IMG/VR virus record: IMGVR_UViG_3300022555_000023
Location: 8,095 to 72,094 of that record
DNA from: a virus
Taxonomy: Duplodnaviria > Heunggongvirae > Uroviricota > Caudoviricetes
Length of the DNA stretch: 64,000 bases
Reading direction: 5' to 3' (one strand)
Shown: positions 16,608 to 55,451 of the stretch, piece by piece
How positions within the stretch are numbered: position 1 is the first letter of the stretch
How the letters are laid out: each line of letters starts with the position of its first letter
Notes under the pieces: model-generated
Seen by the model: only the letters and a program-made list of their open reading frames with translations
Told to the model about the DNA's origin: nothing
Databases searched by the model: none
Made by a program: the position numbers and the translations under genes

Positions 16608-16850
16608 TTATTTCAGATCTTTCATCCAAAGATCATACTCTAACGCCACGTCGCGGTACTGCCTATGAAAGTGTTCCACGCTTTCGGCATCCCGCAGTTC
16701 GCTTGCGATCTGCATAGCACAAATGTTCCTGATCATTCGCAGATGGTAACCGATTACGCGTCGCAGTTGTTTGCACGCTTTGATCAACTGCCACGCACAT
16801 GCCAGGTTGATGAACGCGGCGGCGATAAAAACGAACCACATAACGGTCAC
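16608..16850 (-). CDS. Small membrane protein of 80 aa
   Basis: N-terminal transmembrane segment MTVMWFVFIAAAFINLACA. ATGA overlap. Confidence 0.45.
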   Translation of the reverse strand: MTVMWFVFIAAAFINLACAWQLIKACKQLRRVIGYHLRMIRNICAMQIASELRDAESVEHFHRQYRDVALEYDLWMKDLK

Positions 16851-17599
16851 AGTTCACCACCGTTGGGCAGATTCTGGATGCGTCGTCGCTTCGGGCGTAA
16901 CTGCGGAGCAGTCGCACCAGGCGGGTCACGCAGATTGGGAATGCACGGCTCTTGGTCGATTTGCCGAATGCTGGCAAAAACGGCGGGCGGTATCTGCATC
17001 GCACGCATCACTCGCTGTTCTAACTCACGCATCTCCTCGGTGATATCTCGGGCTCGCGGCGTATTGGGGTTGCGCGGCTCACACGTCGGCCCAGTTGGTA
17101 CGACGTAGCGAAGATCGAGGGCGTCTTCAATACTACCGCCGTTGTGGACGCTTGGAATGACCGCGACCACCGAATCATGCATTGGGGCCGCTGTATAGCG
17201 GTGCCGATCCATCGCGTCGCGGAACGGCTCCATCGCTTCAAACGCACCATTCAGTGCCGTATCCAGGCCCGTACCAGCGAACACGTCCATCAGGGTGCGG
17301 CCCTGCGGCGGGTCTCGCAGTTCGGGCGGCTCAGGCCGCGGCGTTGCGCTCTGCACAGCCCACCGTAGACAATGCAAAGAGTTGATCATACAACTGCTCC
17401 ATCCCGATGGTGACGACGGATCAGGACTTGAATGTCTGATCACAGCTTCGCCCGCTTCCTTCAGAGCATCGCGATGCTGGGTGATGCGGGCGACGAAGTT
17501 GACCAGTTCATGATACTCCTCAGACGACGCATGGTTGCGTCGGGCTTGGTTGTAATTCCCCAGCAGTCTGTCCAGCGTTCGTCGTTCGTCTTGCGTCAT
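16847..17599 (-). CDS. Hypothetical protein of 250 aa ending in the C-terminal tag RRRIQNLPNGGEL
   Basis: ORF. The tag is coded at 16850-16888. Confidence 0.55.
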   Translation of the reverse strand: MTQDERRTLDRLLGNYNQARRNHASSEEYHELVNFVARITQHRDALKEAGEAVIRHSSPDPSSPSGWSSCMINSLHCLRWAVQSATPRPEPPELRDPPQGRTLMDVFAGTGLDTALNGAFEAMEPFRDAMDRHRYTAAPMHDSVVAVIPSVHNGGSIEDALDLRYVVPTGPTCEPRNPNTPRARDITEEMRELEQRVMRAMQIPPAVFASIRQIDQEPCIPNLRDPPGATAPQLRPKRRRIQNLPNGGEL

Positions 17600-17603
17600 G
17601 ATT

Positions 17604-18068
17604 TTACTCCATCCATGCCAGACACCCCGGCGTGCTACATCGTCCCCAGCAATGCCCGTTGATAGCCGCTATCGATAGCGTCAGCCGCCCGCCGCAGCCA
17701 GTCGGGCAATCTACGGTCTCCTGAGCGTTCTGGCGTTTGTGGCGGCTCCTGAAGGCATCCACGGTATCGGCGGCCATAGCATGACGTTCGAGAATACGGA
17801 TTAGTTCGATGTTCCTGGCTCGGCCCTCGGCCCGCGTGAACATAGCGAAATGATCACACGGCACGCGGTTTGAGTCCGATGCGTCGCTCAGTTTCCGGCA
17901 CGGTGCACGCAGTGCCCAGCCGATGTCAACCCCGCCTATCAGTCGCCTGATATCGATGTCCATAGCACACGGACGATCCTCTAACATGCCGCGAAAATGT
18001 CGGCATATCTGATCAGGCCCGGCCATCTTCGGGGCGGTTCTCATCCTGCGTCGTTCAGGCATGGTCAT
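17604..18068 (-). CDS. Hypothetical protein of 154 aa starting MTMPERRRMRT (N-terminal tag)
   Basis: ORF. Member of the tag family. Confidence 0.5.
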   Translation of the reverse strand: MTMPERRRMRTAPKMAGPDQICRHFRGMLEDRPCAMDIDIRRLIGGVDIGWALRAPCRKLSDASDSNRVPCDHFAMFTRAEGRARNIELIRILERHAMAADTVDAFRSRHKRQNAQETVDCPTGCGGRLTLSIAAINGHCWGRCSTPGCLAWME

Positions 18069-18111
18069 CTTTCAGTGGCGACGGCTTCATCATACGATGA
18101 CGCAATCACGA

Positions 18112-18963
18112 TCATAGTTCACCACCTTCACCCACGGGATTGTCGATGAAGTCCAGAAACTGTCGGCGTTGGTGGCCAGTCATGCTGCGAACTTGGTCTA
18201 CTGTCCAGCCATAGTATTCAGCCAGGCGTAGCTCGATGCAATCCTCGGGCGGTCGCAGGCCGATCATTACGATGTCCCACACGTTAGTGTTGTTGTTTCC
18301 GTTGCGGCCAACCAGCATGACCGTGCCCAGGGATAAGCTGCGTCGGACCGTGCTGGGCGACTCGCGGCCCGCACGAATGTTCTCCACGATGACTCCAGTA
18401 TCACGCACCTTGATCCGCACGCCAGACGGCTCCATACGGTCGGACATCAGCATCATGGCGTGTGCTTCGCCCAGTGGCCGCAGTTCCTCCAGCAGCACGC
18501 ACGACAGTATCTGGCTATATGAATCCGACCGCCGTCTGGTGAAGCATGACGTCATTTTGCGTCGTTCGACTGTTCTCGTGATTCGGAGTCGCTCCGGACG
18601 CTGCCGAACGTCATTGATCTCGATAACGATGAGGTTTTCTACAGTGCCACGATCACACCGCGGGTTAAATCGTGGGTCAGCAAACGTATTGCGATAACGT
18701 GGGTTTGGGTAGTTCTCATTCACGAGAGCATCACGACCATCGGAGAAACAGATCTCAGTCTCGGTTATGATCACCAAGTTTCGCGGCCCGCCAAAGTTGG
18801 ACCAGGCACATCGTAGCTCGACATCGTAGACTGACGGCACGCGTCCACCGACCAGAAGCGGCCTGATGTACATAACCAGGGCATTGACGTTGTGGCCCAG
18901 GCTGTCGGCGATGACCTTCATCATCACCTTGCCCGCCTTCGTGATCACGAGCATACCCGTCAT
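18112..18963 (-). CDS. Hypothetical protein of 283 aa with internally duplicated halves. The C-terminus ends ...GEGGEL.
   Basis: ORF. Confidence 0.5.
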   Translation of the reverse strand: MTGMLVITKAGKVMMKVIADSLGHNVNALVMYIRPLLVGGRVPSVYDVELRCAWSNFGGPRNLVIITETEICFSDGRDALVNENYPNPRYRNTFADPRFNPRCDRGTVENLIVIEINDVRQRPERLRITRTVERRKMTSCFTRRRSDSYSQILSCVLLEELRPLGEAHAMMLMSDRMEPSGVRIKVRDTGVIVENIRAGRESPSTVRRSLSLGTVMLVGRNGNNNTNVWDIVMIGLRPPEDCIELRLAEYYGWTVDQVRSMTGHQRRQFLDFIDNPVGEGGEL

Positions 18964-19518: not shown

Positions 19519-19570
19519 GATTTCGCCTTACAAATTAATCGTGGATCTCTTGTTTAGTAACGCCACCCAT

Positions 19571-22098: not shown

Positions 22099-22143
22099 GA
22101 TTCATACCTCCTATCACACTGGACACGGCCCGCCAATATGATA

Positions 22144-22455
22144 TTAGTTCATTTCGGGGCCGAAATGCGGAGAATTCGGATCGCCGACCGCCTGGTTCAG
22201 GCTTTCCGCCGGCGGATCCGCGATCACCTCGATGCCGGGCGGCGGTTCGGTCCACTGATCGCCCAGTTGCGATTTCCAGAACTCGATCATGCCGGGCAGG
22301 CAGTGTGCCGCGGCGTCAGCCCAGGTCGGCCAACGGCCACGCAGTTCGCGGAACCGCATTTGATAGTAGATGCTGCTCGCGTTATGAGGGAAATGCGGCT
22401 CATGTTTGTGGCCGCAGACCGGGCACATATCCTTGGACGGAGGGAGTAGAAGCAT
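22144..22455 (-). CDS. Hypothetical protein of 103 aa with Cys and His residues (CPVCGHKHEPH)
   Basis: ORF. Confidence 0.45.
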   Translation of the reverse strand: MLLLPPSKDMCPVCGHKHEPHFPHNASSIYYQMRFRELRGRWPTWADAAAHCLPGMIEFWKSQLGDQWTEPPPGIEVIADPPAESLNQAVGDPNSPHFGPEMN

Positions 22456-23078
22456 TACGGTGCGAACTCCAGAGTTTCCATGTGCCTTCGACTCCTAAGT
22501 ATATCTTCGTGCGACACGCGAGGTGGTCTGAACTCGTTGCGCACCACGCGACCGTTCATGAGTTCGTTGTAATCAAAACGAACTTCAGTGGCCTGTCTAA
22601 ATGAGACGTCCTCACAGGCGAAGTCACACAGAGCGTTCTTAAATATGATAGCTATTCGTGGAATAAGAAGTTCGCCGCGAATGAACCTGCGTCCTCGATC
22701 ACGCAGACGATACCAGCCCTTCTTCAATACGCGTTCCTCGCGCCCGGCCACAATGATCAACTCAAATCGCTGCTCGACTACACCCCAGTGTCGCATATAC
22801 GATGAATCGCCCCATGATCCACTCGTGGTGTTATCGTGACCCTCAACTAGCCTGACAATCTCAATCCACTCCTCGCCGGTATTGTCGGTATATTCCTGCA
22901 TCCACTTCAGTATGCAGCAGTATTCACTAACGAATGGCCGTGGATAGAGACAGCACAGCCCTCCGCACACCTCACAGTGAAACTTCTCGCAGTCCCATAG
23001 ACGTCTCTCGTAATCTTCCTGCGTCTGGCGTATAACCGTCTCACGAGTAATAGTTTGCATCCGGCGTCGTTCGGGCAT
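22455..23078 (-). CDS. Hypothetical Cys-rich protein of 207 aa starting MPERRRMQT (N-terminal tag)
   Basis: ORF. GGAGAAACGCG precedes the ATG as a ribosome-binding site. Confidence 0.55.
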   Translation of the reverse strand: MPERRRMQTITRETVIRQTQEDYERRLWDCEKFHCEVCGGLCCLYPRPFVSEYCCILKWMQEYTDNTGEEWIEIVRLVEGHDNTTSGSWGDSSYMRHWGVVEQRFELIIVAGREERVLKKGWYRLRDRGRRFIRGELLIPRIAIIFKNALCDFACEDVSFRQATEVRFDYNELMNGRVVRNEFRPPRVSHEDILRSRRHMETLEFAP

Positions 23079-23235: not shown

Positions 23236-23420
23236 CCTATCCAGACATGCGGGTAGTCGCTCATGTGGCCCTCGTAAATCAACCAGAACACTTCGTCTCC
23301 GCCGATGGTCTCACCGCTTTCGGATGCATAATCATCGATCATGTTTCTGATCTCGGTTGGGCCGACGTTCTGGCCTGCGGTCAGGCGTTGCTGTAAGTAG
23401 TCTAGTAGGCTCATGATCAA
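23232..23420 (-). CDS. Hypothetical protein of 62 aa
   Basis: ORF with ATGA overlaps. Confidence 0.4.
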   Translation of the reverse strand: MIMSLLDYLQQRLTAGQNVGPTEIRNMIDDYASESGETIGGDEVFWLIYEGHMSDYPHVWIG

Positions 23421-23794
23421 AGCTCCCAGCCAGGCCGCGATGATGGCGGCGGTGCAGGTGGTTCGGGCGGCGGTGTCTGCATGCGGCGGCGTACTATGAC
23501 TGGCCTCGTCAGTTCCCGTACCAGGGCGATCATAGCGTTTGTGGCAGTCTCAACGTCGGGCATGCGGCGACTCATGAAGGCCGCCTGCCTGTCTTCCAGT
23601 ATCTGCTTAATGCGGTTCTTGACGTCTTCGTCGGACATAACCTCGCGGCCACGCACGAAGTCCTCGGAGAACCGCATGATCTGGCCACGATACTCTGACT
23701 TACGATAGGCATCGTTGGCCGCGACGAGGCGGGTTAGTAGATTATGCAGAAAGTCGGTGTCGCCTTGGTTCATGCCTAACCAGACACGGCTCAC
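23417..23794 (-). CDS. Hypothetical protein of 125 aa
   Basis: ORF with ATGA overlaps. Confidence 0.45.
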   Translation of the reverse strand: MSRVWLGMNQGDTDFLHNLLTRLVAANDAYRKSEYRGQIMRFSEDFVRGREVMSDEDVKNRIKQILEDRQAAFMSRRMPDVETATNAMIALVRELTRPVIVRRRMQTPPPEPPAPPPSSRPGWEL

Positions 23795-25328: not shown

Positions 25329-25844
25329 TTATGATTCTCCTTGGGTTTGTATTTTGCGTCGTTCGATCACCTTCTCCTCGGCGGCGATGCGGCGTGCCAG
25401 GCTGGCAACAAATCTCCACGTCGGGGCCGAGGAATCGAACCAGGGCGCACTTACGGTTACCTTACCAAACACCGTAGCACCAGGGGCTCCCCACCATCTC
25501 TGGCCACGAGTTGTGATCGGCATGATCTCGATGAGCCCAGCCCACTGTGGGATATCATCGTGCGTCAGCAGGCCACCAGGCGTTGCGTAGTAAAACTCGT
25601 TGCACAGCATCCTGGCCCGGCGTTGCTTCATGCGATTCTTAACGTCGCTGCGAAAATCGGGGCGTGATACTTTGATCTCGATGGATACCCGCCGGCAGCG
25701 ACGGTCGGATTCTATTCCCCATAAGTCCATCGTGCGCTCGCCGTCGTCGCCGAAGCCTGACCCGACACGCATCTGCCGCATCCAGATCATTTTTCCCCAG
25801 GCCCGCATGTTCCGCACGGCGTGTTCGACTTCATCGGCAGTCAC
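25329..25844 (-). CDS. MmcB-like PD-(D/E)xK nuclease of 171 aa ending in the C-terminal tag variant RRKIQTQGES
   Basis: DLWGIE...VSIEIKVSRPDF carries the D...ExK signature of the MmcB family. Confidence 0.55.
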   Translation of the reverse strand: MTADEVEHAVRNMRAWGKMIWMRQMRVGSGFGDDGERTMDLWGIESDRRCRRVSIEIKVSRPDFRSDVKNRMKQRRARMLCNEFYYATPGGLLTHDDIPQWAGLIEIMPITTRGQRWWGAPGATVFGKVTVSAPWFDSSAPTWRFVASLARRIAAEEKVIERRKIQTQGES

Positions 25845-27840: not shown

Positions 27841-28133
27841 GGCTTCTCCGCCTTCATGCTGATCACGCAGAACGACTCGCTGCGGGAAATCTGGCCACCG
27901 TTCTGATAGTTGAACTTGTGGTACAAAATATGATGCCCCTGCCAGTCGAAGGTAGACCAGCCGTTGCCCACCTCGCGGACGTTCGTCGCTCCCGTGGGAA
28001 GGGTGTCACTGGTCGGGGCCACCGTGGTTTCGCCGCAGCCGATACATAAAACCAGCAGGGCTAGAGCTAGAAGTCGTTTCATGTTTGGATCCTCCTTCGC
28101 GTTGGGGTGGCAGGGGCCGCTGTTTGGCCCCAC
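27837..28133 (-). CDS. Lipoprotein of 98 aa (signal peptide with lipobox LVLCIGC)
   Basis: MKRLLALALLVLCIGCGE. Confidence 0.55.
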   Translation of the reverse strand: MGPNSGPCHPNAKEDPNMKRLLALALLVLCIGCGETTVAPTSDTLPTGATNVREVGNGWSTFDWQGHHILYHKFNYQNGGQISRSESFCVISMKAEKP

Positions 28134-29251: not shown

Positions 29252-29793
29252 TTAGGTTGATTCCTTACTAAATTCCGTTCCACAATCGCCTCTGCAACTC
29301 GAAGTAAAGGCCCCTCACCCCAGACACCCATAGCGTTATTCACTAGTAACCAAACAATTCTAATGTTACCCTGAACGTAACCACACGATGGATCAATACG
29401 ATCTAACGACATCTTTCCGTAGTCAGTAGTTTGCTCAAACGGCATAGCCGTTATAGCACAAACACCGCCCTGTAAATCATAAACCTGACGCAGGTATTCT
29501 AGCGATATGTTGCAATCCAGGTTACGTCTGGCACTACGAGCACGTGCGTTTCGCATCATACACTCTAACGCTATGGAAACATCTACGTGACGACGATCTC
29601 GATGCTTGCGTTGACTCTTGCCAATTATCGCCCTTGCCTTGTCTGGATCATTCTTCCAAAGTTCTGCCCATCTTTTTGCACTACGCATATTTATAGATTC
29701 ACGATTCCGTAGGTAACACTGGCGATTTGTGTACCTCTTTCTAGCCTTCCTAATTTCTTCAGGACTTGTTTGAATTCGTCGTCGTTCTAGCAT
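29248..29793 (-). CDS. Hypothetical protein of about 181 aa starting MLERRRIQT (N-terminal tag). C-terminal segment SLDRIDPSCGYVQGNIRIVWLLVNNAMG.
   Basis: The ORF track gives 29248..29898, but ATG 29791-29793 has an AAGGAG ribosome-binding site 7 nt upstream. Confidence 0.5.
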   Translation of the reverse strand: MLERRRIQTSPEEIRKARKRYTNRQCYLRNRESINMRSAKRWAELWKNDPDKARAIIGKSQRKHRDRRHVDVSIALECMMRNARARSARRNLDCNISLEYLRQVYDLQGGVCAITAMPFEQTTDYGKMSLDRIDPSCGYVQGNIRIVWLLVNNAMGVWGEGPLLRVAEAIVERNLVRNQPK

Positions 29794-30045
29794 GGCGATG
29801 CTCCTTATGCAGTCCGCCAGAGGCCCTGGAGCATCGCCAAACGCAGACAGGGCGTGGCGGACATGATTTGGGCATTGGCGATGCTCGACTAGACTCATGG
29901 TACATTAAACCACAGCCGATAGCAACTCACGGCTTCACCTTCGCTTTCGCCGCCTTCTCCCGCATCGCCGCGGTCGCCCGCAGGAACGCCTCGGCGTAGT
30001 CAAGCTGGCCCTGAACGTAGCCGTCGTGCCAGTCCTGCGAAGAGT

Positions 30046-33428: not shown

Positions 33429-33626
33429 TTATCTCCTGGTTTCACGTTTGTCCCGCACTAGACGCCGGCGGTCGGTCGAAACTGGATCGGCCTTGCGTCG
33501 TTCTTTGGCCCTGGTGGCTCGACGGGCGTCCCGCCACCATACCATACGATGATACGTTACGTCTATAAACACCACCAGCAGTAGACCCAGGCCACCACCT
33601 ATCATCACGCACATGATCTCACGCAT
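33429..33626 (-). CDS. Small membrane protein of 65 aa
   Basis: MREIMCVMIGGGLGLLLVVFI. Confidence 0.4.
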   Translation of the reverse strand: MREIMCVMIGGGLGLLLVVFIDVTYHRMVWWRDARRATRAKERRKADPVSTDRRRLVRDKRETRR

Positions 33627-34609
33627 TACAGTTCTCCCGTGGACTGAATCCTTCGTCGCACGACGGTTCGCTTGCCGCGTGTAATCTTTCTTCGTTTGAC
33701 TGGTTCCGGACCAAGACGGTTCAACGTCCAGCCGACCGGCAGGACGATGCCATGCTCGGTTTCTCTGTCCATCAGGCCGGCAAGTATCGTGATAGCCAGT
33801 TGGCTGTTGCTGACAACTCGGCTGCCCTGGCGAGACTCACCGGGCGGGTATGTCAGCACCCATATCACGCGGTCGGTATTTGCCTCGACGTGGGCAATAA
33901 TACGTTGTTCAGCATTAACGAACGTTCGCGGCAGCGTGTAGCCCACGGGAAGCCGCTGGACGTTCGGCTCGGCGGGCGTCACCTGGCTGTGGGATCGCAG
34001 TCGTCGCAGATCGGCTTCTGTAATATAGGGCTGATGTTGCTGCTCAACTGCTGCTTCCAGTCGGCGTATAAACTCCGCTCGCGGTACGTCACCACGACCG
34101 AAAAGGTTGCTGAATGACATCGCGTCAGCGTGTGCGCTCGAATAGTTACTGTCCTGCGTCAGCAAGCTGCCCGGTATTCCCAGCGACTCATTAGCCCGCC
34201 GTGCGGCGTCGGTGGTAACAGCGGCTATGGCCTCGGGCGTCGGTGGTGGCGGTGTTGGCCCCAAGCGATGCTGTCGCCGCTCGGGTGGCCGGGCTCCATA
34301 CATAGGCGGAATATCCAGTCGGGATCCACGTCGACGGGCTTCGATGATGTTGGCCGCATGACCGTAGTCCTCACGGTTCCGCTGCGGGTAGAGATGAATA
34401 ATACTGTCAGTATCACTAATCTGCTGACCAAACGGCAGCCCTTCCTGAATAACGATGTATTCTCCGGTTCGCAGGCCGTAGAGGGACACAAGGTGCATGG
34501 CGTCGATGAAATGGCGGTCGCCGTCAGACATGCTGGTGACGTAGCCGGGATGCACTGCGTACCGCGGCCCGTTCATCGGTTCAGGATTGTTTGGGTTCTG
34601 CTGTGGCAT
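33626..34609 (-). CDS. Hypothetical protein of 327 aa ending in the C-terminal tag RRRIQSTGEL. Paralogue of 37026..37583.
   Basis: N-terminal (GEYIV) and C-terminal (WVLTYPPGESRQGSRVV..LAITILAGL) blocks are shared with 37026..37583. Confidence 0.55.
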   Translation of the reverse strand: MPQQNPNNPEPMNGPRYAVHPGYVTSMSDGDRHFIDAMHLVSLYGLRTGEYIVIQEGLPFGQQISDTDSIIHLYPQRNREDYGHAANIIEARRRGSRLDIPPMYGARPPERRQHRLGPTPPPPTPEAIAAVTTDAARRANESLGIPGSLLTQDSNYSSAHADAMSFSNLFGRGDVPRAEFIRRLEAAVEQQHQPYITEADLRRLRSHSQVTPAEPNVQRLPVGYTLPRTFVNAEQRIIAHVEANTDRVIWVLTYPPGESRQGSRVVSNSQLAITILAGLMDRETEHGIVLPVGWTLNRLGPEPVKRRKITRGKRTVVRRRIQSTGEL

Positions 34610-36005: not shown

Positions 36006-37114
36006 ATCGTGTCATGCACCGTGCGTTTGCCGGCCTTGCGGTCGTGATACTGAGCTTCTATCCAAGCAAATGTTCGTGCCAGGCCGACGCGGAACGATGT
36101 CCGTGGCTGCCAGCCCAGGTAGTGCTGAATCATCGTGTTGTCGCTGTTGCGACCAGCCACACCCTTGGGGGCACTGAGATCGTACAGTCGCTTCAGCTTC
36201 ACGCCTCCGATTTCCTCGGCGATATCCACCAAGTCATTGACAGAGATCGACTCATTGGATCCGAGGTTGATGGGCGTCGCGATAAGATCACTGCATTGCG
36301 TAATACGGTCGATGCCGTCCAGACAGTCCTCGATCCACATGTAGCTGCGATTCTGCGTGCCGTCGCCCCATATCGTGATCTCGTGCTTGCCGGTTTCCCT
36401 GGCCTCGATCACCTTGCGGCAGATAGCTGCTGGTGCCTTCTCACGGCCACCGTCCCACGTGCCGTGCGGGCCGTAGACGTTGTGGAAGCGGGCGATGAAG
36501 GTCTTCATGCCGCGTTCGGCCCAATACTCCTGACAGAACATCTCCGAGAGGAGCTTCTCCCAGCCGTAACCACGCTCCGCCATCGCGGGGTAGGCATCAG
36601 TCTCCTTCAGTGCCAGGCACTCGGCAGTCTTCTGCAAGTTGATGTTGTAGGCACAGGCTGACGATGAGTAGAAATACTTCTGGCAACCAGCACGCCAGGC
36701 GGCTTCGATCATGTGAGTATTAATCAACACGCTTCGCAGGCACTGGATACGGAACCTCTCGATGAAGCCCATGCCACCCATATCGGCTGCCAGGTTGTAG
36801 ACTGCGGTCGCGCCCTCACATACGCGATGGCAGTTCTCCTCGATGCTCACATCAAGACTCAGGTTCTCGACGCCGTCGCTGACCTGATACCAGTCGGGCA
36901 GTGGCTTCTTATCCACAGCCCTGATGTGAACATGACCTTTCTCGTTAAGTCGTCGCACTAATGATCCGCCGATGAACCCACCGGACCCTGTAACCACAAT
37001 CACGTCGCTCACGCTTAATTTCTCCTTAGATTTCACCACTATCGGGTAATGTTTGAATACGTCGCCGCACCGGCCTGGGTGCGTCTTCCATCGCTGGCGT
37101 CCATAACTGGCCAC
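36002..37114 (-). CDS. GDP-mannose 3,5-epimerase homologue (NAD-dependent SDR epimerase/dehydratase family) of 370 aa
   Basis: Rossmann motif VTGSGGFIGGS. There are long stretches of identity to plant GME recalled from memory: NLAADMGGMGFI, FYSSSACAY, LKETDAYPA, YGWEK (YxxxK), RFHNVYGPHGTWDGGREKAPAAICRK, IWGDGTQNRSY and GVAGRNSDNTMIQHYLGWQP. Confidence 0.75.
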   Translation of the reverse strand: MASYGRQRWKTHPGRCGDVFKHYPIVVKSKEKLSVSDVIVVTGSGGFIGGSLVRRLNEKGHVHIRAVDKKPLPDWYQVSDGVENLSLDVSIEENCHRVCEGATAVYNLAADMGGMGFIERFRIQCLRSVLINTHMIEAAWRAGCQKYFYSSSACAYNINLQKTAECLALKETDAYPAMAERGYGWEKLLSEMFCQEYWAERGMKTFIARFHNVYGPHGTWDGGREKAPAAICRKVIEARETGKHEITIWGDGTQNRSYMWIEDCLDGIDRITQCSDLIATPINLGSNESISVNDLVDIAEEIGGVKLKRLYDLSAPKGVAGRNSDNTMIQHYLGWQPRTSFRVGLARTFAWIEAQYHDRKAGKRTVHDTI

Positions 37115-40710: not shown

Positions 40711-41354
40711 GATTTATCCTTGGGAAGTAGTTTGAACTCTTCGGGCTTGTAACCACCGCGGGTGCCATCGTCGAAACGGATGGTGTACAACAAACCGATC
40801 ATCTCGTTGAACCCCACGATCTCGCCAGGTACGCCCCACTTACGTTCGCCGAGAAGATCGGCAAACAACTGATTCTCGGTCTCGGTGCGAACGGTACGCG
40901 ACCTCGTCGTCACGACTCGCGTGCCCAGCGGTATCGGGGGCCACATCACCTCAACATCGCTGGCGTCCTCCAGCGTCTCCAGTTCGGCCCGTTCGTATTC
41001 ATAGCTGGAACGATCTCGCAGGATGTGCCAGGCCAGCCAGCCGTTGTTGGTGTCGATGGCCCGCTTGATGCGGTTGTAATCATCGGTCTCCTGCTGCCAG
41101 GCGTTCAGCGACCGCCGGTACTGCTTGAACGTCTCCTTCGCCGCAGCCTGCATGGACGCTGGCATCTTCTCGATGTCGGCCTCCGCGAAGTCGGGCTTCG
41201 TGGGAGCGACGCCAGGGGCGTAGTACCAGCCGCCCTCATCGAAACGGGCCTTCAGGACTGACAGTGCAGCCTGGGCCAGCAGTTTGTCGGTCGATGCGTC
41301 GAAGTGGCGGGTGCCGTGCTTTTCTTCCAGAACGAGAATGCGTTTCATGATCAT
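40707..41354 (-). CDS. Hypothetical protein of 215 aa
   Basis: ORF with ATGA overlap. Confidence 0.5.
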   Translation of the reverse strand: MIMKRILVLEEKHGTRHFDASTDKLLAQAALSVLKARFDEGGWYYAPGVAPTKPDFAEADIEKMPASMQAAAKETFKQYRRSLNAWQQETDDYNRIKRAIDTNNGWLAWHILRDRSSYEYERAELETLEDASDVEVMWPPIPLGTRVVTTRSRTVRTETENQLFADLLGERKWGVPGEIVGFNEMIGLLYTIRFDDGTRGGYKPEEFKLLPKDKS

Positions 41355-42220
41355 CCACGGGGTTCGTCGCCGGGAACGACAGCTTCGCCCAGCGGCATGG
41401 GTCGGTTCTCAGGGTATTCGGGATACGTCTTGGGATGGGCGGCGTGCCATGCAACAGCAGCCTCCTGATTCTTGCGATCCTCGTCGTCGCGGGCCTGTGT
41501 AATACGCTTGTGGGCCTCGATCAGTTCCAGGCGGGCCTCCTCCTTCTTCGCCTCTTCATCCAGGTCGGGGGCGATCTCCACAACCGCCTCGGTATCCGGG
41601 TCGGTTGCCGGCAGTTCGGTCTGATCGTCGCCGCTGCTGTGGCTATGCTCCATCTCGGCGGGCATATCACCGAACGTCTCGCCCAGGTAGCGGAAGACGT
41701 AGTCGAGGATGCTCTTGGCATACCGCACGCACGTCTCGCCCTTGGTGTAACCCATAGGCTCAAACTTCGTGTGGCTGAACTTCTCCACGAGCTTGTACAG
41801 CGGCCACCCGCTTTGCAGGCAGAAGCTGGTCAGGGTGGCGATGCCGTCGAGCAGGCCGTCGATGGTGCTGCCCTCCTTCCGCGTCGTCAGGAAGATCTCG
41901 CACAGCCTGCCGTCAGGAAAGGTGTTCGAGATGATGAAGAATTCGACCGGATCGGGCGACGTGCCGTCATCGGACATGGCGAGGATGGTGGCCTTGTGCG
42001 TCAGGCCAAATCGGGTCTCGGTTGGTTTTTCACGGTTCATATCGGTCTCCTTGATAAGGGCGGAACGGGCGAGCGACGCCTCCGAATCACAGAGAGTCAC
42101 TAGGCCCGAAGGCCACGCCATTCTAAGGGATGCCGTGCGTAGCGATCCCAACCATCCCTGCGTCGTAACGCCGCCCGCACCATGCATCACCAGACACGAA
42201 CTACATACCGGAAAACACAA
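41351..42220 (-). CDS. Possible TSCPD-domain protein (like the C-terminal domain of class II ribonucleotide reductase NrdJ), 289 aa
   Basis: The segment STIDGLLDGIATLTSFCLQSGWPLYKLVEKFSHTKFEPMGYT resembles the TSCPD consensus. This comes from memory and is weak. Confidence 0.4.
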   Translation of the reverse strand: MCFPVCSSCLVMHGAGGVTTQGWLGSLRTASLRMAWPSGLVTLCDSEASLARSALIKETDMNREKPTETRFGLTHKATILAMSDDGTSPDPVEFFIISNTFPDGRLCEIFLTTRKEGSTIDGLLDGIATLTSFCLQSGWPLYKLVEKFSHTKFEPMGYTKGETCVRYAKSILDYVFRYLGETFGDMPAEMEHSHSSGDDQTELPATDPDTEAVVEIAPDLDEEAKKEEARLELIEAHKRITQARDDEDRKNQEAAVAWHAAHPKTYPEYPENRPMPLGEAVVPGDEPRG

Positions 42221-42739: not shown

Positions 42740-43669
42740 CTACTCAAGCGGTGCATTTCCGATATCATATCTCCCGTCACCGGCTCGCGTCAGGGTGCGG
42801 TACTGAAACGGCATTACGCCAGCGTTGGGCGGGGATTGGCTATCGGGTACGATATCGAACGATGGATGATATACAATGAACGCAAACGCCGCACGATGCG
42901 GCTCGTGGTGAACGCTGCGTATGACAGCCCCGTGCGGCAATTCGGGGTCGATGCCGACCACGATGTAGTCGGGATCCTCGCGGTAGAAGGCGATCAGCAG
43001 TTCTCGCTCGCGGATGTAGTATATCATCTCGCGGCGTTCCCGGTTGGGGGCATGGGACATGTCCATGACTCGCCCGCGGGCCACGCCACGCAAATCTTCA
43101 CCGATGGCGGGGCATCGCGGTTGGGCCTCGCAGATGACTCCCGATTGACCGTTTCCCATGTGGAACGCTAGGTTCTCGGGGCCACCCAGCGGTAACGGGG
43201 CTGCCCGCCCGCCTGAACGCGGCACGTTGCTCACGTTGGGCCTTGCGGAAGATACGCGGCCCGTTTCCGTACTATGCCACTGAAGCCGCCTGTCGAGGTT
43301 TACGGCCTCGTCAAAGGCTACGCCGCTGATCTCCTGTCCGCGAAGCGGTACGTTATCCGGTGGAACCCACAGCCCGGCGATACCGGCACGCTGCCCTGGC
43401 GGGTAGGCCACCTCCATGTTCAGCACCACCTGACCGTTACACACATAAGCTGTACAGTTCCTAACCGTCGCCGGCTCACCGTTGATGTTGATGAATCGGT
43501 TCATCAAGTCGACGTTGATGTTGCCCGGGTCAGGGCTCGCGATCCTCATACCGAATTGACCGGCACGCATCGGTTCGGGGCGTAGGGACGGCGGAACGGG
43601 TGGCGGACCACCTGTGTTCATACGTCGTCGAACTACAGGCGGTGTCTGGATGCGTCTACGTTCGGGCAT
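42740..43669 (-). CDS. Hypothetical protein of 309 aa starting MPERRRIQTPPVVRRRMNT (N-terminal tag followed by a half-repeat)
   Basis: ORF with the ribosome-binding site TAGGAGCAAGTC. Confidence 0.55.
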   Translation of the reverse strand: MPERRRIQTPPVVRRRMNTGGPPPVPPSLRPEPMRAGQFGMRIASPDPGNINVDLMNRFININGEPATVRNCTAYVCNGQVVLNMEVAYPPGQRAGIAGLWVPPDNVPLRGQEISGVAFDEAVNLDRRLQWHSTETGRVSSARPNVSNVPRSGGRAAPLPLGGPENLAFHMGNGQSGVICEAQPRCPAIGEDLRGVARGRVMDMSHAPNRERREMIYYIRERELLIAFYREDPDYIVVGIDPELPHGAVIRSVHHEPHRAAFAFIVYHPSFDIVPDSQSPPNAGVMPFQYRTLTRAGDGRYDIGNAPLE

Positions 43670-44519
43670 GACTTGCTCCTATACGACGTCTAGACACGAA
43701 GATTCGCTTTACTTCGTCCACATCGGTGCGGAGCGTAACCAGTTGCCGCATGATTGCCAGTCCATCATCGCGGAACTTCAGCAGGGCGGCCCTGCGGGAC
43801 GCGCTGACCTTAACTGAATCGATGTTATCGTAAATAGCGTCGATGCTGCCCCACTGCCGAATAGCCTCGCTGGCCGTCTTCTCGCCCCATCCCGGACAAC
43901 CAGGCACACCGTCTCCAGAATCACCAGCGAGGGTCTGATAATCAATCCACTGACGCGGCGTCAGGCCCTTCTGATCGAGAAGAAGCTGCGGCGTCATCCA
44001 CTCAATGTTTGTGATACCCGATCCCAACAGGTGGAACTTCTTGATGATCGTTACGCGGTCGGCAACCAAGCACTGGTTGAGGTCTTTGTCGGGCGACGCG
44101 AGCACGGCATCACTGCCCACGGCGACCGCCCTGGCGGCTAAGGCAGCTAGGCAATCATCCGCTTCAAAACCGTTTACCTGAACCACCACGGCCCAGTCCT
44201 TCAGCACGCCCAGAGCATTCTCCAGTACGAAGTGCAGGTTCTCGTCGTGCGGGCGTTCGCCCCGTTTGGCCTTATAGGGCGGATAGAGATCATGCCGGAA
44301 GCTCCTGCGGTCGAGGCACACCACCACCAGCTTCGGCTGTAGGTTCCGCGTCAGGGCGTCGATGCGGCGCACCACAGTCTCCAGCACATCGTGCCCGTTG
44401 TTGGCATGGTAGATAGTGTGCAGCCAGTTCGTACCGTCGATGCCGAGATAGACTTGACGGCTGGCCCGTGTGGTAGCGACATCGAACAATGATCGATCCG
44501 GGCGGCGGATTGCCATCAT
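43656..44519 (-). CDS. 5'-3' exonuclease / flap endonuclease (FEN, RNase H-like) of 287 aa
   Basis: YLGIDGTNWLH, YKAKR, GFEADDCLAALA and GDSGDGVPGCPGWGEKTA are hallmark motifs of the PIN and H3TH domains. Confidence 0.75.
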   Translation of the reverse strand: MMAIRRPDRSLFDVATTRASRQVYLGIDGTNWLHTIYHANNGHDVLETVVRRIDALTRNLQPKLVVVCLDRRSFRHDLYPPYKAKRGERPHDENLHFVLENALGVLKDWAVVVQVNGFEADDCLAALAARAVAVGSDAVLASPDKDLNQCLVADRVTIIKKFHLLGSGITNIEWMTPQLLLDQKGLTPRQWIDYQTLAGDSGDGVPGCPGWGEKTASEAIRQWGSIDAIYDNIDSVKVSASRRAALLKFRDDGLAIMRQLVTLRTDVDEVKRIFVSRRRIGASHART

Positions 44520-44996: not shown

Positions 44997-46211
44997 TTAC
45001 TTCTTTCCGAATCTAAGCCAAATATCACTGCCACTACCACAGGCCGGGCTGAACCAAACACGCTCGCGGCCCGCGTTCCCGCGAAGAAACTGCCCGCCCT
45101 TCTCTACCTTCTTGTTAGCCCCATCCTGACCCTGGTTTCCGTAGCCTCCTGCGGCTGTCCACGCGTGAACTGCCCATCCGTTCTGCTCAAGGATATCACC
45201 TTCCGGTGTATAGCCGCAGTACGCGATGCGGTAGATATTCGTGTCTTTGTTCGCTCGGCACCACGCGGGGTCGGTATGCTGGATGCACCACTCCTTGATC
45301 TTGGTGCTGATGTCGGCATCCTGATTTGTGTATAGGGTGCCGTTGAAGTTGGCATCAGCACCGTAGGGCGGGTCGAACATGATGCCTATTTTGCCCGTTC
45401 CCGTGAACGCGGGCGTCACGGCCCGCGACCAGTCACCGCTGAGGACTAATGTCTGTCGCATGCGGTACGACAGGGCTCGCATCCACGACTTGAGGTAGTC
45501 AAGCTCCTGCCGCAGCACGCCCCGGTTCCCCACGCAGGGCACGCTACAGGTGATGCCGTTGCCGTCCCGTCGCGGGTCGTCCTTCTCCAGGCACACAAGC
45601 TCGTCGTTGATGACGTACCACGGGCCGTCGCCGCTACAGAACCCACCGCCCAGCTTCATGCAGATGCCCCACAGCCACCACGCGCCGAGCTTCACGTCAC
45701 AGAAGTCGGTACTGCCGCCCACGAGCTTCCGCATGCGATCCCTGGATCGCGTGAGGTGCGAGTGGATGGCGTGCAGTTCCATCTCGGCCAGCATGATACC
45801 GTTGCAGATCTCAGCCACCTCGTCGGGATGACGGCTGATGGCCCTCCACGCGTTCACCAGGAGGGCATCGTAGTCGTTGAGGACTTCACGGCCCACCCAC
45901 GGCTGTGGTCGCACGAGGTACGTTGCTGCGGATCCCATGCACGGCTCGATATAGCAGTCGAGGGTCTTGGGATCCAGGCGACTCCATATCTCATTAGCGA
46001 CACCGCTTTTTCCGCCGAAGTACGGATAGGGGGCAACAAGTAGCTTCTCGTCCACGTTCCCGCTATCACCAATATGCCTGCGAGCAGGGGTCGCAATCGA
46101 GCGACGGACGAGGGTACGCTGGTCGGATGTCGGTTCTTCCGCGACGGGAACCTCCACGGACGAGATGATGCGGCGTCGTGTAGGTACGGTTTCGATATTT
46201 CGGCGTTCCAT
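44997..46211 (-). CDS. DNA N6-adenine methyltransferase (Dam/D12 class) of 404 aa with an N-terminal extension of about 50 aa carrying the MERRNIETVPTRRRII tag
   Basis: YPYFGGK (SAM-binding motif of Dam) and the DPPY catalytic motif (IMFDPPYG). Confidence 0.7.
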   Translation of the reverse strand: MERRNIETVPTRRRIISSVEVPVAEEPTSDQRTLVRRSIATPARRHIGDSGNVDEKLLVAPYPYFGGKSGVANEIWSRLDPKTLDCYIEPCMGSAATYLVRPQPWVGREVLNDYDALLVNAWRAISRHPDEVAEICNGIMLAEMELHAIHSHLTRSRDRMRKLVGGSTDFCDVKLGAWWLWGICMKLGGGFCSGDGPWYVINDELVCLEKDDPRRDGNGITCSVPCVGNRGVLRQELDYLKSWMRALSYRMRQTLVLSGDWSRAVTPAFTGTGKIGIMFDPPYGADANFNGTLYTNQDADISTKIKEWCIQHTDPAWCRANKDTNIYRIAYCGYTPEGDILEQNGWAVHAWTAAGGYGNQGQDGANKKVEKGGQFLRGNAGRERVWFSPACGSGSDIWLRFGKK

Positions 46212-49312: not shown

Positions 49313-49346
49313 AAGTTAGTATAGACCGACTGCCGCCGGCGTTCAA

Positions 49347-51183: not shown

Positions 51184-51404
51184 CGTTTGCCTCCGATGTT
51201 CACGCCAAACATGGTTTCACCGTGCAGGCAGCGGCAGCACGGGCACATGCACGCAGGCTGGCACGGCATGTTGCCAGGATGACCGATATAGCCCTTGTGG
51301 CCACAGCCTAGATACATGCACTGCACGCCGGTGCTGCCGTCATCCAGCTTGCAGGCCCGGTACGATGGGAAACCCGAAGGTGCTGTGCCGTCGCCGATGA
51401 TCAT
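51180..51404 (-). CDS. Small Cys-rich protein of 74 aa
   Basis: CMYLGCGHKG...CQPACMCPCCRC. Confidence 0.4.
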   Translation of the reverse strand: MIIGDGTAPSGFPSYRACKLDDGSTGVQCMYLGCGHKGYIGHPGNMPCQPACMCPCCRCLHGETMFGVNIGGKR

Positions 51405-51847
51405 ACTTGCCTCTCGACGTAAGTTGTGGAATCTCCCCAGGCCACGCCGGTCATATCCATGCTGATTAATCCTGCCTTGCGAACGTAATGCGTCACCAGC
51501 AAGTCGTTCTCAGGTTCGGGCAGGTAACCTATCGGCAGGCCCAGTTCCGCAGCGAAGAGTCGCTCCTCTCGCAGACCGACCGATTCCTGCCATCCCTCGA
51601 TCTCCGTGATCAGCATCGCCTGGCTACGTTCCAGCATCATGTGGTCGAACCGCTTCCAGTATTCCCAGTCCAGAGGCAGCCCGTGGGCCACAGCAATTGG
51701 GTGAGCATGCACGATAGGTGCGAACACGAAGCACCCGGCCCGCTTCAGAATCGATGCGCAGTGCGTCACGATCTCAAACCGCCGTCGCCTCACATCAGCG
51801 TCCTTGTGCGTGTACGGCGACGATAGGTAGATCAGCTTCCCTGTCAT
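51401..51847 (-). CDS. DUF1937 protein (nucleoside 2-deoxyribosyltransferase-like fold) of 148 aa
   Basis: IYLSSPYTHKDADVRRRRFEIV...GCFVFAPIVHAH matches the DUF1937 consensus. Confidence 0.55.
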   Translation of the reverse strand: MTGKLIYLSSPYTHKDADVRRRRFEIVTHCASILKRAGCFVFAPIVHAHPIAVAHGLPLDWEYWKRFDHMMLERSQAMLITEIEGWQESVGLREERLFAAELGLPIGYLPEPENDLLVTHYVRKAGLISMDMTGVAWGDSTTYVERQV

Positions 51848-52741: not shown

Positions 52742-52786
52742 CTTACAGGTTATTTCTTATGCTATCCAGACACTTGGCTGTCCGCG

Positions 52787-53149: not shown

Positions 53150-53151
53150 GA

Positions 53152-53511
53152 TTAATCCAACCGTTCTACCTTGTCCACAGTGTACTGCGATCCCTGCTGG
53201 GCCGGTGCAATCATGTACTGGTGATAATGAATCTTGACCTTGTGTCCGTCCAGGGCTTCCAGTTGCTGGCCGATGCCGTCGTCGCGGCTGGAGAACTCGA
53301 ACACATTCGTGCCCTTGTCCTCGCCGGACTTCCGCAAGTTGAAGTCGGACAGCTTCAGTTCGCCCTCCCAGGACTTCCAGATCACGCCCTTATTACTGAT
53401 CTTGTAAAGCTCGCCTGTACGCGAACCATCCGAATACTCGGGCATGAAACCGCCGCCTAGCTTGATGGCGGCACAGGACGGGATGAGAATTAGGGCTGCG
53501 ATAATAACCAC
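53152..53511 (-). CDS. Membrane-anchored protein of 119 aa
   Basis: N-terminal hydrophobic segment MVIIAALILIPSCAA. Confidence 0.45.
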   Translation of the reverse strand: MVIIAALILIPSCAAIKLGGGFMPEYSDGSRTGELYKISNKGVIWKSWEGELKLSDFNLRKSGEDKGTNVFEFSSRDDGIGQQLEALDGHKVKIHYHQYMIAPAQQGSQYTVDKVERLD

Positions 53512-53615
53512 GATGCCCAGCTTGGCATTGCCGTCGAGGCGTCTGGGGGACTGATAGGAACGCGTAATGATCTCCTTGGGTCTGGTGTGCCTCGCGTTAC
53601 GTTACGCCCGGCTGA

Positions 53616-54686
53616 TCATTCAGACACAGATGATTCTAGACGTCGCCGCGTCAATTGCCGGCCTACGGTTTCCTCCGGGTTGGCCCGTGGAAACTGCGGG
53701 CCGGCCAAGCACGCCTTGCCCGCTGCCTTCAGGTCGTCGCTGATCTGGTCGGCGTTGCTGGCGCAGTAGTGATTGAACAGGTCACCGGGCGGCAGACGCC
53801 GGGCGGCCAAGTCCATCGGGCTCATGTGGTGAACATCGCGTTCCACGAGCCTGCACCCGCACAGCACGGCCCTTTGGCGTTCGGCAAACTCCTGCACCCG
53901 CCGGCGGCACTCGTTCCAGGTGTCAAACTCGGCCCGCTTCAGCCGCACCTCGATCTTGATCATGTCGCCGGGGTTCACCCGCATATCGGTAAGCCGGTCG
54001 GTGCCATCGATGACCAGCTTCCGCTTGGCCGGGAACGGCGGGTTGATATCCTCGTAGTCCCGACCACTGTCGAAGATCACCCGCGGTATGTATTCATCGC
54101 CGAAGTCAACGTGGTACGGTGCCCCGACATACTCGATGTTCGCCAGCCGCTGCGGAACATGAACGTCCCCGCAGTATACCCTCGCCCGCGTACCCGAGAA
54201 CGTCGAAGTCGGCAGGCCATCTAAACGCTTCCCGCCGCCGATACTGGCCCCGTGGAATGTCTGGTGGGCGAATATGTAGTCGAAGTCGGACATCCTGTAG
54301 CCTTCGGCGTACTGCCGCACAGCCCGCGTGTGAGGCAGGAACAGGCACTTGGACTCGCCGAGGGTGCGCTTGGTAGGCTCCAGAAAGAACTCCACGCCCG
54401 TATGCCGCAGCCAACGGAAGTAGGGCACGTCGGGGTTCACGTAATCGTGGTTGCCCATCAGAACGATAGTCGGAGCGGCGTCGTCGAGGAGTTTCAGCCC
54501 ATCGGCAATAGCGTTCGCCAGGGCCGAAGAGTGTCGATCCTTGGATTCCGTCAAATCCCCAAGGATTATGATATAGTTCACGTGCCGCCGCGTCGCCTCA
54601 CCCGCCAGCCACTCAAAGATTCTCAATCGATAGGCGTCTCGCAGGTTATCGGTCTCGTGCAGGTCGCTGGCTATCAGTAAGTTCAT
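53616..54686 (-). CDS. Mre11/SbcD-like metallophosphoesterase nuclease (T4 gp47-like) of 356 aa
   Basis: Phosphoesterase motifs ASDLH, ILGDLTE and MGNHD. Confidence 0.7.
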   Translation of the reverse strand: MNLLIASDLHETDNLRDAYRLRIFEWLAGEATRRHVNYIIILGDLTESKDRHSSALANAIADGLKLLDDAAPTIVLMGNHDYVNPDVPYFRWLRHTGVEFFLEPTKRTLGESKCLFLPHTRAVRQYAEGYRMSDFDYIFAHQTFHGASIGGGKRLDGLPTSTFSGTRARVYCGDVHVPQRLANIEYVGAPYHVDFGDEYIPRVIFDSGRDYEDINPPFPAKRKLVIDGTDRLTDMRVNPGDMIKIEVRLKRAEFDTWNECRRRVQEFAERQRAVLCGCRLVERDVHHMSPMDLAARRLPPGDLFNHYCASNADQISDDLKAAGKACLAGPQFPRANPEETVGRQLTRRRLESSVSE

Positions 54687-54833
54687 GATGGTTCCTTAAC
54701 TCCGTAGCGGAACGGGCTTGTGATGTAGCCGTCAGTTCCTTCGCATAGTTCGGGCGTGTTCAGGTGGCGGATACATTCACGATACTTGTTGTATCGGGTG
54801 CTGTCCACCCGTACTAACAGACACCCGCACCGT

Positions 54834-55451
54834 TCACATCGCGGCTGAATTGATTCCGCCATTCGTCACCACGCCATAGTATGTGATCAGCAGGGCGTCG
54901 CATACCGCCATTTGCTCCTTCTTCGTCTTCTGCCACACGTCCAGATCGGGCATCAGTTCCTGAGCCCGCTTGCGGATATCCTCTTTGTGTTCAGCCTGGA
55001 GCAGTGCTTTGACCGCCTTGGTCGTCCGTGTGCTGCCGTCCTGCTTGCGGAAGTCCACGGGCACTGGCTTGCGGGTCGTCGGGATGTTCATGGCCCGCTG
55101 CCAAGTGGCGGGCTGCACCTTAACCGGGATGATATCCAGAGCTGTCATGAACGCCAGAAGTCGCCCGTAACCTACGCCAAACTTGAATGCCCCAGCCACG
55201 CCCATCGCATAGGCATGCACGGCCTCGATGTAGACGCTGACGTTGCTTGGATCCGCGATATGCTGCCGCAGCCAAGCCCACAGTTCGTCGTTCCCTTCGG
55301 GCATCCGCTTGACCAACATGATCGCGTTGGGTCCGGTCTCGGTGACAGCCAAGCCACCGTTCATGCCGGGATCGATACCCATGATCAGTCTGCGTTCGGG
55401 AGTGATCACCTCACGCCAGTCGGTAGTTTTAATGCGGCGGCGTTCGGTCAC
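54834..55451 (-). CDS. RuvC-like Holliday-junction resolvase of 205 aa with an N-terminal extension of about 20 aa carrying the MTERRRIKT tag
   Basis: LIMGIDPGMNGGLAV matches the N-terminal catalytic motif of RuvC. Confidence 0.65.
   Translation of the reverse strand: MTERRRIKTTDWREVITPERRLIMGIDPGMNGGLAVTETGPNAIMLVKRMPEGNDELWAWLRQHIADPSNVSVYIEAVHAYAMGVAGAFKFGVGYGRLLAFMTALDIIPVKVQPATWQRAMNIPTTRKPVPVDFRKQDGSTRTTKAVKALLQAEHKEDIRKRAQELMPDLDVWQKTKKEQMAVCDALLITYYGVVTNGGINSAAM

Follow-up and report, generated by a model that had tools for sequence, protein, structure and literature searches.

Sliding clamps are bound by their partners through short peptides with a hydrophobic or aromatic core, such as QL[SD]LF or QLxLxL for the beta clamp and the PIP-box Qxx[LIM]xx[FY][FY]. 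Single-stranded DNA-binding (SSB) proteins also act as hubs, through the C-terminal A domain in T4 gp32, the C-terminal tip in Escherichia coli SSB, and the acidic tail in T7 gp2.5. T4 gp32 recruits UvsX, UvsY, gp59, Dda, and RNase H via its C-terminal region (PMC11551737), and the beta clamp is bound through short motifs by transposases of many insertion sequence families (PMC4549789). Clamp motifs have been acquired by mobile-element nucleases and transposases (PMC4549789, PMC3971601), and the phage protein MuC uses a clamp-binding motif (PMC12867686). Here, we describe a short Arg-rich peptide, referred to below as the tag, that recurs at the termini of otherwise unrelated proteins of an uncultured tailed phage (Caudoviricetes). 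The phage is represented by a 64,000-nucleotide stretch, the window, which covers positions 8,095 to 72,094 of the IMG/VR record IMGVR_UViG_3300022555_000023.

Like the clamp-interacting peptides, the tag is a short motif at the termini of many unrelated DNA enzymes, including a clamp loader, resolvases, nucleases, and methylases, and the phage encodes its own beta-like clamp together with a tagged clamp loader. However, the tag is basic and polar, lacks the Q-x-x-L-x-F pattern, and has no aromatic residues in a profile of 53 copies. In addition, unlike what is known of clamp clients, PolA of this phage is untagged, whereas the clamp loader, RuvC, methylases, and nucleases are tagged. The SSB hubs have a counterpart in a gp32-like protein whose disordered, acidic C-terminal tail is built of repeats and unusually long, and the tagged set includes UvsX-like, SbcD-like, and exonuclease proteins. 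In the known SSB systems, however, the linear motif is on the SSB and the clients have folded pockets, whereas here the motif would be on the clients.

As a transferable terminal peptide with one destination, the tag also resembles terminal sorting signals, including twin-arginine translocation (Tat) signals, nuclear localization signals (NLSs), encapsulin cargo peptides, and the T4 capsid targeting sequence. PKRRRIQ is similar to a monopartite NLS, and the tagged set resembles the proteins imported by nucleus-forming phages, although PhiKZ-like phages have no linear import signal and import proteins via folded surface patches (PMC11087766). Tat signals have an N-terminal S/T-R-R-x-F-L-K, then a hydrophobic h-region and a cleavage site. 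Unlike them, the tag has no hydrophobic h-region, half of its copies are C-terminal, and the N-terminal copies precede polar or Pro-rich sequence; a Tat signal was rejected on the first two grounds. The tag also differs from capsid and encapsulin cargo peptides in that, judged by sequence, the virion proteins of this phage are essentially untagged. The eukaryotic LC8 hub motif TQT shares with the tag a core of about six to eight residues ending in Q-T, several copies on disordered segments, and unrelated clients, but no LC8 homolog is expected in a phage and the resemblance is in the mode of working only. In Cluster K mycobacteriophages, start-associated sequences directly precede start codons, and it is their DNA that is conserved. 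They are similar to the tag in being short repeats beside many gene starts of one genome in one orientation; however, conservation of the tag follows codons, and its repeats are translated. No described motif family matches the tag. The string RRRIQT was not found in the literature searched, nor was anything comparable on phage short linear motifs on unrelated proteins, and we know of no report of a terminal peptide shared across the DNA-metabolism proteins of a phage.

Definition and positional bias of the tag

The 53 collected copies define the consensus phi(-2)-[E/V/T](-1)-R-R-[R/K]-[I/M/L]-x-[T/S], often with a Pro within the next three residues. Glu occupies position -1 in 17 of the 53 copies, Ile, Met, or Leu occupies +3 in 51, and Thr or Ser occupies +5 in 35. 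A representative single tag is PERRRIQTPPVVRRRMNT, and residues 1 to 50 of the Dam methylase represent the tandem form. In some proteins, a terminal extension contains two to four copies, 8 to 12 residues apart, which suggests avidity. At least 17 window proteins are tagged in frame at the N or C terminus, and about twenty otherwise unrelated proteins are tagged in this phage and its close relatives.

In the called proteome, the pattern RR[RK][IM]Q[TSN] had 9 matches, compared with 0.01 expected from shuffled sequences. RRRI was the most widely shared 4-mer, being present in 11 proteins against a shuffle maximum of 4 to 7, and RRRIQ and RRRIQT (4 proteins) were the top 5-mer and 6-mer, respectively. 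Of the 17 strict matches, 15 are no more than 25 residues from a protein end, in a zone that holds 27% of the residues (p = 2e-7). The C-terminal copies are 0 to 19 residues from the protein end, and the N-terminal copies sit after good Shine-Dalgarno sites. Most of the tagged starts agree with independent gene calls on public contigs.

The original prediction, which was made from the DNA letters, listed 12 instances on unrelated proteins. All 12 are present on the minus strand at the positions given there, and the window copies described below are on this strand as well, except that the open reading frame (ORF) 18112-18963 has no RRRIQT at its C terminus; it ends in GEGGEL and has weak internal copies only, RLRITR and RRKMTS, at amino acids 125 to 139. 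The carriers are mutually unrelated outside the tag, apart from one pair, 33626-34609 and 37026-37583, which are paralogs (E = 5e-12). Copies that had not been listed were found in RecA/UvsX, SbcD, the exonuclease, 23417-23794, 16060-16458, the C terminus of 22455-23078, Dam (two copies), and at 63901-63918.

Conservation of the peptide

A DNA repeat finder supplied with no peptide information recovered the tag as the largest direct-repeat family (six copies). Pairs of these six copies differed at 20% of first, 9.5% of second, and 52% of third codon positions, and the Arg codons switch between CGN and AGR. A DNA weight-matrix scan, for which 0.06 matches reaching 18 bits were expected per strand, yielded 14 on the coding strand and no such match on the opposite one. 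Thirteen of these 14 share the frame of a called gene. The copies follow starts, precede stops, lie 70 nt away from any start, or occur well within genes, as do four in Dam and three in the C5-methylase of a relative, with no fixed relation to start sites. In the related contig L004, the RuvC tag differs from that of the window by three synonymous changes and one change at a variable position, and the upstream DNA is unrelated. Because the differences are biased to the wobble position, the positions of the copies vary, 13 of 14 matches are in frame, and the L004 changes are synonymous, it is well supported that conservation acts on the peptide and not on a DNA element, as had been proposed. 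One strong match, at 8613-8633, is out of frame.

An extended C-terminal consensus, LPxxGEL, had also been proposed. The terminal GEL is encoded by GGNGAR-CTN-stop, and in five of five cases the next start codon or a coupling mini-ORF lies just downstream, within about 15 nt. The GEL ending is therefore mostly the ribosome-binding site (RBS) of the next gene rather than part of the tag and was rejected as such, and the extended consensus is largely a by-product of GGNGAR serving as a Shine-Dalgarno sequence for whichever gene or mini-ORF follows.

Proteins carrying the tag

Of the 18 DNA-transaction proteins covered, 10 are tagged, as are 9 of the remaining 93 proteins, which gives an odds ratio of 11.7 (p = 4e-5). 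The tagged DNA-handling proteins include the clamp loader, RecA/UvsX, RuvC, SbcD, the 5'-3' exonuclease, two Dam-type methylases, and the EndoVII-like and MmcB-like nucleases, whereas PolA, the clamp, SbcC, two HNH genes, and a sigma-like protein are untagged. No relaxed match was found in the nucleotide-metabolism enzymes, and in the virion module, strict matches are lacking and relaxed matches are limited to RRRIIR, RRKIRY, and RRRIDN.

RecA/UvsX carries RRRLVT within MAKKIVRRRLVTATPPPP at its N terminus (61435..61452), ahead of a RecA core starting at amino acid 74, and its ortholog in contig L001 has KKIVRRRPIA. The RuvC-like resolvase begins with M(GTG)TERRRIKT (55425..55451), and its core starts at amino acid 21; ERRLIMG in the same protein was considered as a second copy and rejected, since it is the first beta-strand of the RuvC core. 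SbcD ends in TRRRLESSVSE, with RRRLES at 53631..53648, and its orthologs end in QRRRLGTVSG and QRRRLDSTVSG. The N-terminal extension of the Dam methylase (46065..46211), which is predicted to be disordered, holds the four copies RRNIET, RRRIIS, RRSIAT, and RRHIGD. The 5'-3' exonuclease ends in SRRRIGASHART, in which RRRIGA (43674..43691) overlaps the RBS of the next gene, and the ortholog in contig L054 ends in ARRRIRI, after the core at 7-249. The MmcB-like nuclease (core 2-161) has a C-terminal tail ending in VIERRKIQTQGES, with RRKIQT at 25344..25361.

The EndoVII/HNH-like endonuclease starts with MLERRRIQT (29767..29793), and an AAGGAG RBS lies 7 nt upstream. The gene caller favors a longer ORF from 29898, which has no RBS. 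A possible sigma-70-like promoter upstream of this gene (29899-29935, minus strand; TTGCTA, 17 nt, TACCAT) supports the start at 29793 over that at 29898. A 169-aa protein (phrog_1069, ParB-nuclease-like), the start of which is past the window end, carries RRRMNS four residues from its C terminus (63901..63918) and ends in QRRRMNSTSRE; the C terminus of its L001 ortholog is QQRRRVSTTRSE.

Other carriers include a 309-aa protein of no assigned function with the double N-terminal tag MPERRRIQTPPVVRRRMNT (43613..43669), both copies of which are kept in the L054 ortholog as RRRITT and RRRMNN. In the two paralogs, the 185-aa protein (37026-37583) ends in VRRRIQTLPDSGEI, with RRRIQT at 37050..37067, and the 327-aa protein ends in the double tag KRRKITRGKRTVVRRRIQSTGEL (33641..33694). 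RRRIQT forms the exact C terminus of a 131-aa protein (28082..28099), and its AGGAGG Arg codons also serve the following gene as an RBS. In a 125-aa protein (23417-23794), RRRMQT (23474..23491) lies 19 residues from the C terminus and is followed by a Pro-rich tail. A 207-aa protein (phrog_2693; 22455-23078) has MPERRRMQT at its N terminus (23052..23078) and a weaker second copy, RRHMET, near its C terminus (22473-22490). A Cys-rich protein (17604-18068; about 152 aa) has MPERRRMRT at its N terminus (18036..18062) and is uncalled by the public gene caller. In its place, this caller reports an opposite-strand ORF of 76 aa (17432-17662), and the tagged ORF has a weak PHROG match, phrog_31210, at its zinc-ribbon-like C terminus. 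The protein ending at 16847 has RRRIQN (16871..16888) in its C-terminal PKRRRIQNLPNGGEL, and a 132-aa protein (16060-16458; ATG start at 16458) begins with MSINRRRITS (16429..16458).

Position relative to enzyme cores and distribution among relatives

The view that the tag is an appendix outside conserved enzyme cores was confirmed, as profile matches begin after the tag or stop before it. The cores given by hidden Markov models span residues 21-197 in RuvC, 74-328 in RecA, 7-249 of 262 in the FEN-type exonuclease, and 2-161 of 171 in the MmcB-like protein, and they start at residues 61 and 31 in Dam and the clamp loader, respectively. In an AlphaFold2 model of Dam built with 46 homologs, the core is confident, whereas residues 1-48, where all four copies are found, have a predicted local distance difference test score below 50.

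Examination of homologs, as the original prediction had suggested for RuvC, Dam, and MmcB, revealed that close orthologs of the first two keep the tag and that distant homologs of all three are without it. RuvC orthologs at 61 to 83% identity retain M-x-ERRRI, whereas homologs at 30 to 34% start directly at the core. Dam orthologs at 63 to 75% keep all four copies, with spacers that vary in length and sequence, and homologs below 40% have no extension. The tail tag of the MmcB-like protein is found in this phage only and is absent from 12 of 12 aligned homologs. Tags are also kept in orthologs of SbcD, the clamp loader, RecA, the exonuclease, and the 309-aa protein. Relaxed matches numbered 12 in L001, compared with 2.4 expected, and 10 in L054, compared with 1.75 expected. 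Carriers in the relatives include an HNH_3 homing endonuclease, a C5-methylase with three internal copies, a TnpB/Cas12f-like nuclease, and several small proteins. The TnpB/Cas12f-like protein (602 aa; L054:5127-6935) is inserted after the exonuclease gene, starts with MPVVRRRIQR, and has a TNB domain at amino acids 519-569. No tags were found in two contigs that share only the MmcB-like gene, one from a Planctomycetes metagenome-assembled genome (64% identity) and one from JGI (51%). With tags present in close relatives and none in the contigs sharing only the MmcB-like gene, the tag is therefore a clade-specific module that has been gained and lost within a narrow clade.

A common receptor as the favored explanation

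Because the tag is short, disordered, terminal, sometimes multicopy, portable, clade-specific, and present on DNA enzymes including selfish nucleases, the explanation that we favor, with a probability of roughly 0.5, is a portable peptide for docking or sorting that a single common receptor recognizes, so that DNA-handling proteins are concentrated. Under this explanation, a short linear motif on disordered terminal extensions, sometimes with a Pro-rich linker, would dock to one receptor, which would gather the tagged proteins at sites of phage DNA replication, recombination, and modification. Selfish nucleases that have acquired the tag would be drawn to the same sites. Recruitment to a common partner or compartment, one of the possibilities raised in the original prediction, thus fits best, with DNA enzymes and selfish nucleases tagged; its capsid version is unlikely, the virion module being essentially untagged.

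Both the binding to a common receptor and the identity of that receptor are what we infer from the sequences. The preferred candidate would be the gp32-like SSB (62458..63780, minus strand), which has a PHROG SSB match and a Pfam gp32 match (E = 7.7e-5) below the curated cutoff. Its C-terminal third (62458-62900) is a tail of about 150 aa made up of acidic (D3-4)PPPAR repeats and Arg clusters and ending in EGRRRSES; the L001 ortholog keeps the repeats, with PPARRRST and PPARRRMS inside. Such a tail would be charge-complementary to the tag and multivalent, and the suggested link draws on this complementarity and on the overlap of clients with the partners of T4 gp32. The second candidate would be the divergent beta-like sliding clamp of the phage, encoded outside the window (L053:1571-2644) beside PolA and the tagged clamp loader, for which neither a tblastn match nor a PDB sequence match was obtained. 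A sorting or import factor would be the third.

It is possible, but doubtful, that the tag acts as a linear sorting signal, NLS-like in function, into a phage-organized DNA compartment or condensate of a phage that is not PhiKZ-like. The gp32-like SSB with its polyampholyte repeat tail could then be a scaffold of such a compartment, no evidence of which was seen in the material analyzed. Selfish HNH and TnpB-like nucleases would in that case have acquired the tag to reach the phage DNA. If true, no linear address label by which a bacterial virus sorts proteins inside the cell would have been known before.

Several observations weigh against docking to a common receptor. PolA, the clamp, SbcC, and the two HNH genes are untagged, which is awkward for a clamp-client or import-signal model, and the polar and basic tag differs from all known clamp-binding motifs. 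The enrichment in DNA enzymes rests on the annotated tagged proteins, which make up about half of the set. The out-of-frame match at 8613-8633 is strong, with 20.8 bits and 0.01 expected per strand; it may be a relic or chance. Finally, the analysis covered about 83 kb of the genome of about 192 kb. The out-of-frame match sits inside a 1259-aa virion gene, in a stop-to-stop stretch of 50 codons.

Alternative explanations

Each of the alternatives accounts for fewer features than a docking or sorting peptide. AT-hooks and the N-terminal arms of homeodomains raise the affinity of proteins for DNA, and the tag could likewise be a nucleic-acid-binding arm that contacts DNA, possibly modified, or RNA and raises the affinity of its carrier with no protein receptor. 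This seems rather unlikely. The carriers are mainly DNA enzymes, three Arg residues are consecutive, the tandem spacing of 8 to 12 residues is about one DNA turn if extended, and the genome has many nucleotide-metabolism and possible DNA-modification genes. However, the conserved nonbasic positions (Glu at -1, Ile, Met, or Leu at +3, and Thr or Ser at +5) exceed what backbone contacts need, two to three basic residues are fewer than in known Arg-rich motifs, and several DNA enzymes are untagged. Modification, by which the enzymes would be switched together, is improbable. RRRxxT resembles the RxRxxS/T site of basophilic Ser/Thr kinases, with Arg at -5, -4, and -3 of the Thr, and a substrate of an enzyme that modifies Arg, such as an ADP-ribosyltransferase, is another form of this explanation. 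Thr or Ser is found at position 6 in 35 of the 53 copies and at position 5 or 6 in 41. Nothing kinase-like came up apart from a PI3_PI4_kinase Pfam match, weak and precomputed, in a 1676-aa protein of the virion encoded just beyond the window. On the other hand, a quarter of the copies have no Ser or Thr at either position, including RRHIGD, RRRIAG, and RRRIQN, which are conserved in orthologs. No kinase, protease, or ADP-ribosyltransferase domain was found in about 80 proteins searched (about 70 of the 99 in the window plus flanking ones). The kinase and protease substrates raised in the original prediction are possible but gained no support. Moreover, modification of a floppy appendix cannot alone regulate a catalytic core, and terminal bias and multicopy arrays are atypical of kinase sites. 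A transglutaminase Q-tag was rejected, as the Gln is not conserved.

The extreme C terminus of MuA, RRKKAI, is recognized by ClpX as a C-motif-2 degron, and RRKIQT is loosely similar to it. A terminal degradation signal for a host AAA+ protease, limiting the lifetime of potentially harmful nucleases and methylases, would explain the strong bias to protein termini and the presence of tags on enzymes able to damage DNA. It is nevertheless quite improbable, given that copies also occur at N termini, internally, and in tandem, with four in Dam and three within the C5-methylase, and given the lack of a fixed distance for C-terminal copies, which vary from 0 to 19 residues from the end, and the tagging of the recombinase, clamp loader, and SbcD, which are needed throughout replication. 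Loading into the procapsid for coinjection is suggested by a short terminal peptide on unrelated enzymes with flexible Pro-rich linkers in a large phage of about 192 kb, but is very improbable, since the tagged set is the cytoplasmic replication and recombination machinery and the virion-module proteins are essentially untagged, with a motif of their own, LGDVAGHxFxGNQY (11 copies, six proteins). The least probable explanation, to which we give hardly any credence, is a DNA or RNA element at gene junctions (a promoter, translational operator, or recombination linker) that is translated incidentally. The genome is tightly packed, and every copy has a start codon no more than about 70 nt away, with the N-terminal ones always at +6 or +9 relative to it. 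In addition, no DNA repeat family is larger than the tag, and one strong match is out of frame. These features are outweighed by the three-base periodicity with saturated wobble positions and CGN/AGR switches, by copies on either side of starts and deep inside Dam and the C5-methylase, by the restriction of 13 of the 14 best DNA matches to the gene frame with none on the other strand, and by the synonymous changes between orthologs.

Genome context

The metagenome contig k141_83342 of ENA assembly ERZ27245846 (192,532 bp) is 99.995% identical to the window over 20.5 kb. Two stretches of this contig map to the window with offsets that are 192,391 apart, equal to 192,532 bp minus a 141-nt k-mer overlap, and the phage genome, of about 192.4 kb, is therefore either circular or circularly permuted. 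It is near jumbo-phage size and has no cultured relative, and the window spans the ends of k141_83342. Megablast of 20 kb of the window against GenBank phages gave no match and thus no close cultured relative, and the closest relatives at the protein level are SbcC-like, with about 30% identity. In IMG/VR, the N-terminal tag as a degenerate DNA pattern had no matches, a protein-seeded scan had none, and a shorter DNA pattern had 37 single matches that were not locally enriched and are attributed to chance. In GTDB genomes and JGI metagenomes, a capsid-region protein had no match, and the DNA pattern had four matches per collection, unrelated to the phage and unenriched.

The window contains part of the virion module at about 1 to 15.5 kb, followed by a long run of small and DNA-metabolism genes, and almost all genes are on the minus strand. 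Among the proteins encoded by this run are the gp32-like SSB, RecA/UvsX, HNH endonucleases, RuvC, SbcD, SbcC, the Dam methylase, and the 5'-3' exonuclease. The run also encodes the sigma-like protein, an epimerase-like protein, an SPFH protein, the EndoVII-like endonuclease, and the MmcB-like nuclease. Directly past the window end are genes for an orotidine monophosphate (OMP) decarboxylase/phosphoribosyltransferase (PRTase), the divergent beta-like processivity factor, PolA with a uracil-DNA glycosylase domain, the clamp loader, and the second Dam-type methylase. The nucleotide-metabolism set (36002-37114, 41351-42220, and 51401-51847 in the window and L053:175-1455) comprises the epimerase-like protein, a TSCPD domain protein, a nucleoside 2-deoxyribosyltransferase-like protein (Pfam DUF1937 in relatives), and the OMP-decarboxylase/PRTase fusion, with ThyX in relatives. 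This gene set suggests that the DNA of the phage may be modified.

The only convincing gene on the opposite strand, at 58006-58479 (plus), encodes an HNH_3 endonuclease and is back to back with an HNH gene at 58484-59044 (minus); it is probably a homing-endonuclease insertion. Translational coupling is tight at many junctions, where stop and start overlap as ATGA or GTGA, often in AA(A/G)TCATGA, which gives C termini in K/R-S. Between 18112-18963 and the gene that starts at 18068/18062 lies a 16-codon mini-ORF, which overlaps each of the two by ATGA (18060-18120).

The virion module has its own recurrent peptide, (L/V)xLGD(V/T)AGHxF(H/R)GNQ(Y/F/W), with 11 copies in six large proteins, both N-terminal and internal. 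Copies are located on the minus strand of the window at 1560-1583, 2109-2132, 3006-3029, 5416-5439, 6293-6316, 6827-6850, and 7880-7903 and, beyond the window, within L049:10532-12994 and L049:18035-20521. In these giant virion proteins, the peptide looks like a module boundary, a processing site, or a signal for capsid targeting. A protein of 921 aa encoded just past window position 1 (L049:15015-17780) is interrupted by an intein with a LAGLIDADG domain, and the gene beside it (L049:18035-20522) encodes the 1676-aa virion protein with the weak precomputed PI3_PI4_kinase match.

Significance

One clade of large uncultured phages places the same label of about eight residues on about a fifth of the proteins in the window, mainly enzymes of DNA replication, recombination, repair, and modification, and newly acquired selfish nucleases are labeled as well. 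Many short linear motifs are known by which eukaryotes and their viruses organize whole groups of proteins, but such motifs are hardly documented in phages. Searches of proteomes for recurrent peptides can reveal organization that domain annotation misses. If the tag is a docking or sorting signal, this transferable peptide would be a handle for finding the hub or compartment of phage DNA metabolism. It could also predict which proteins of unknown function act on DNA and could direct foreign proteins to phage DNA.

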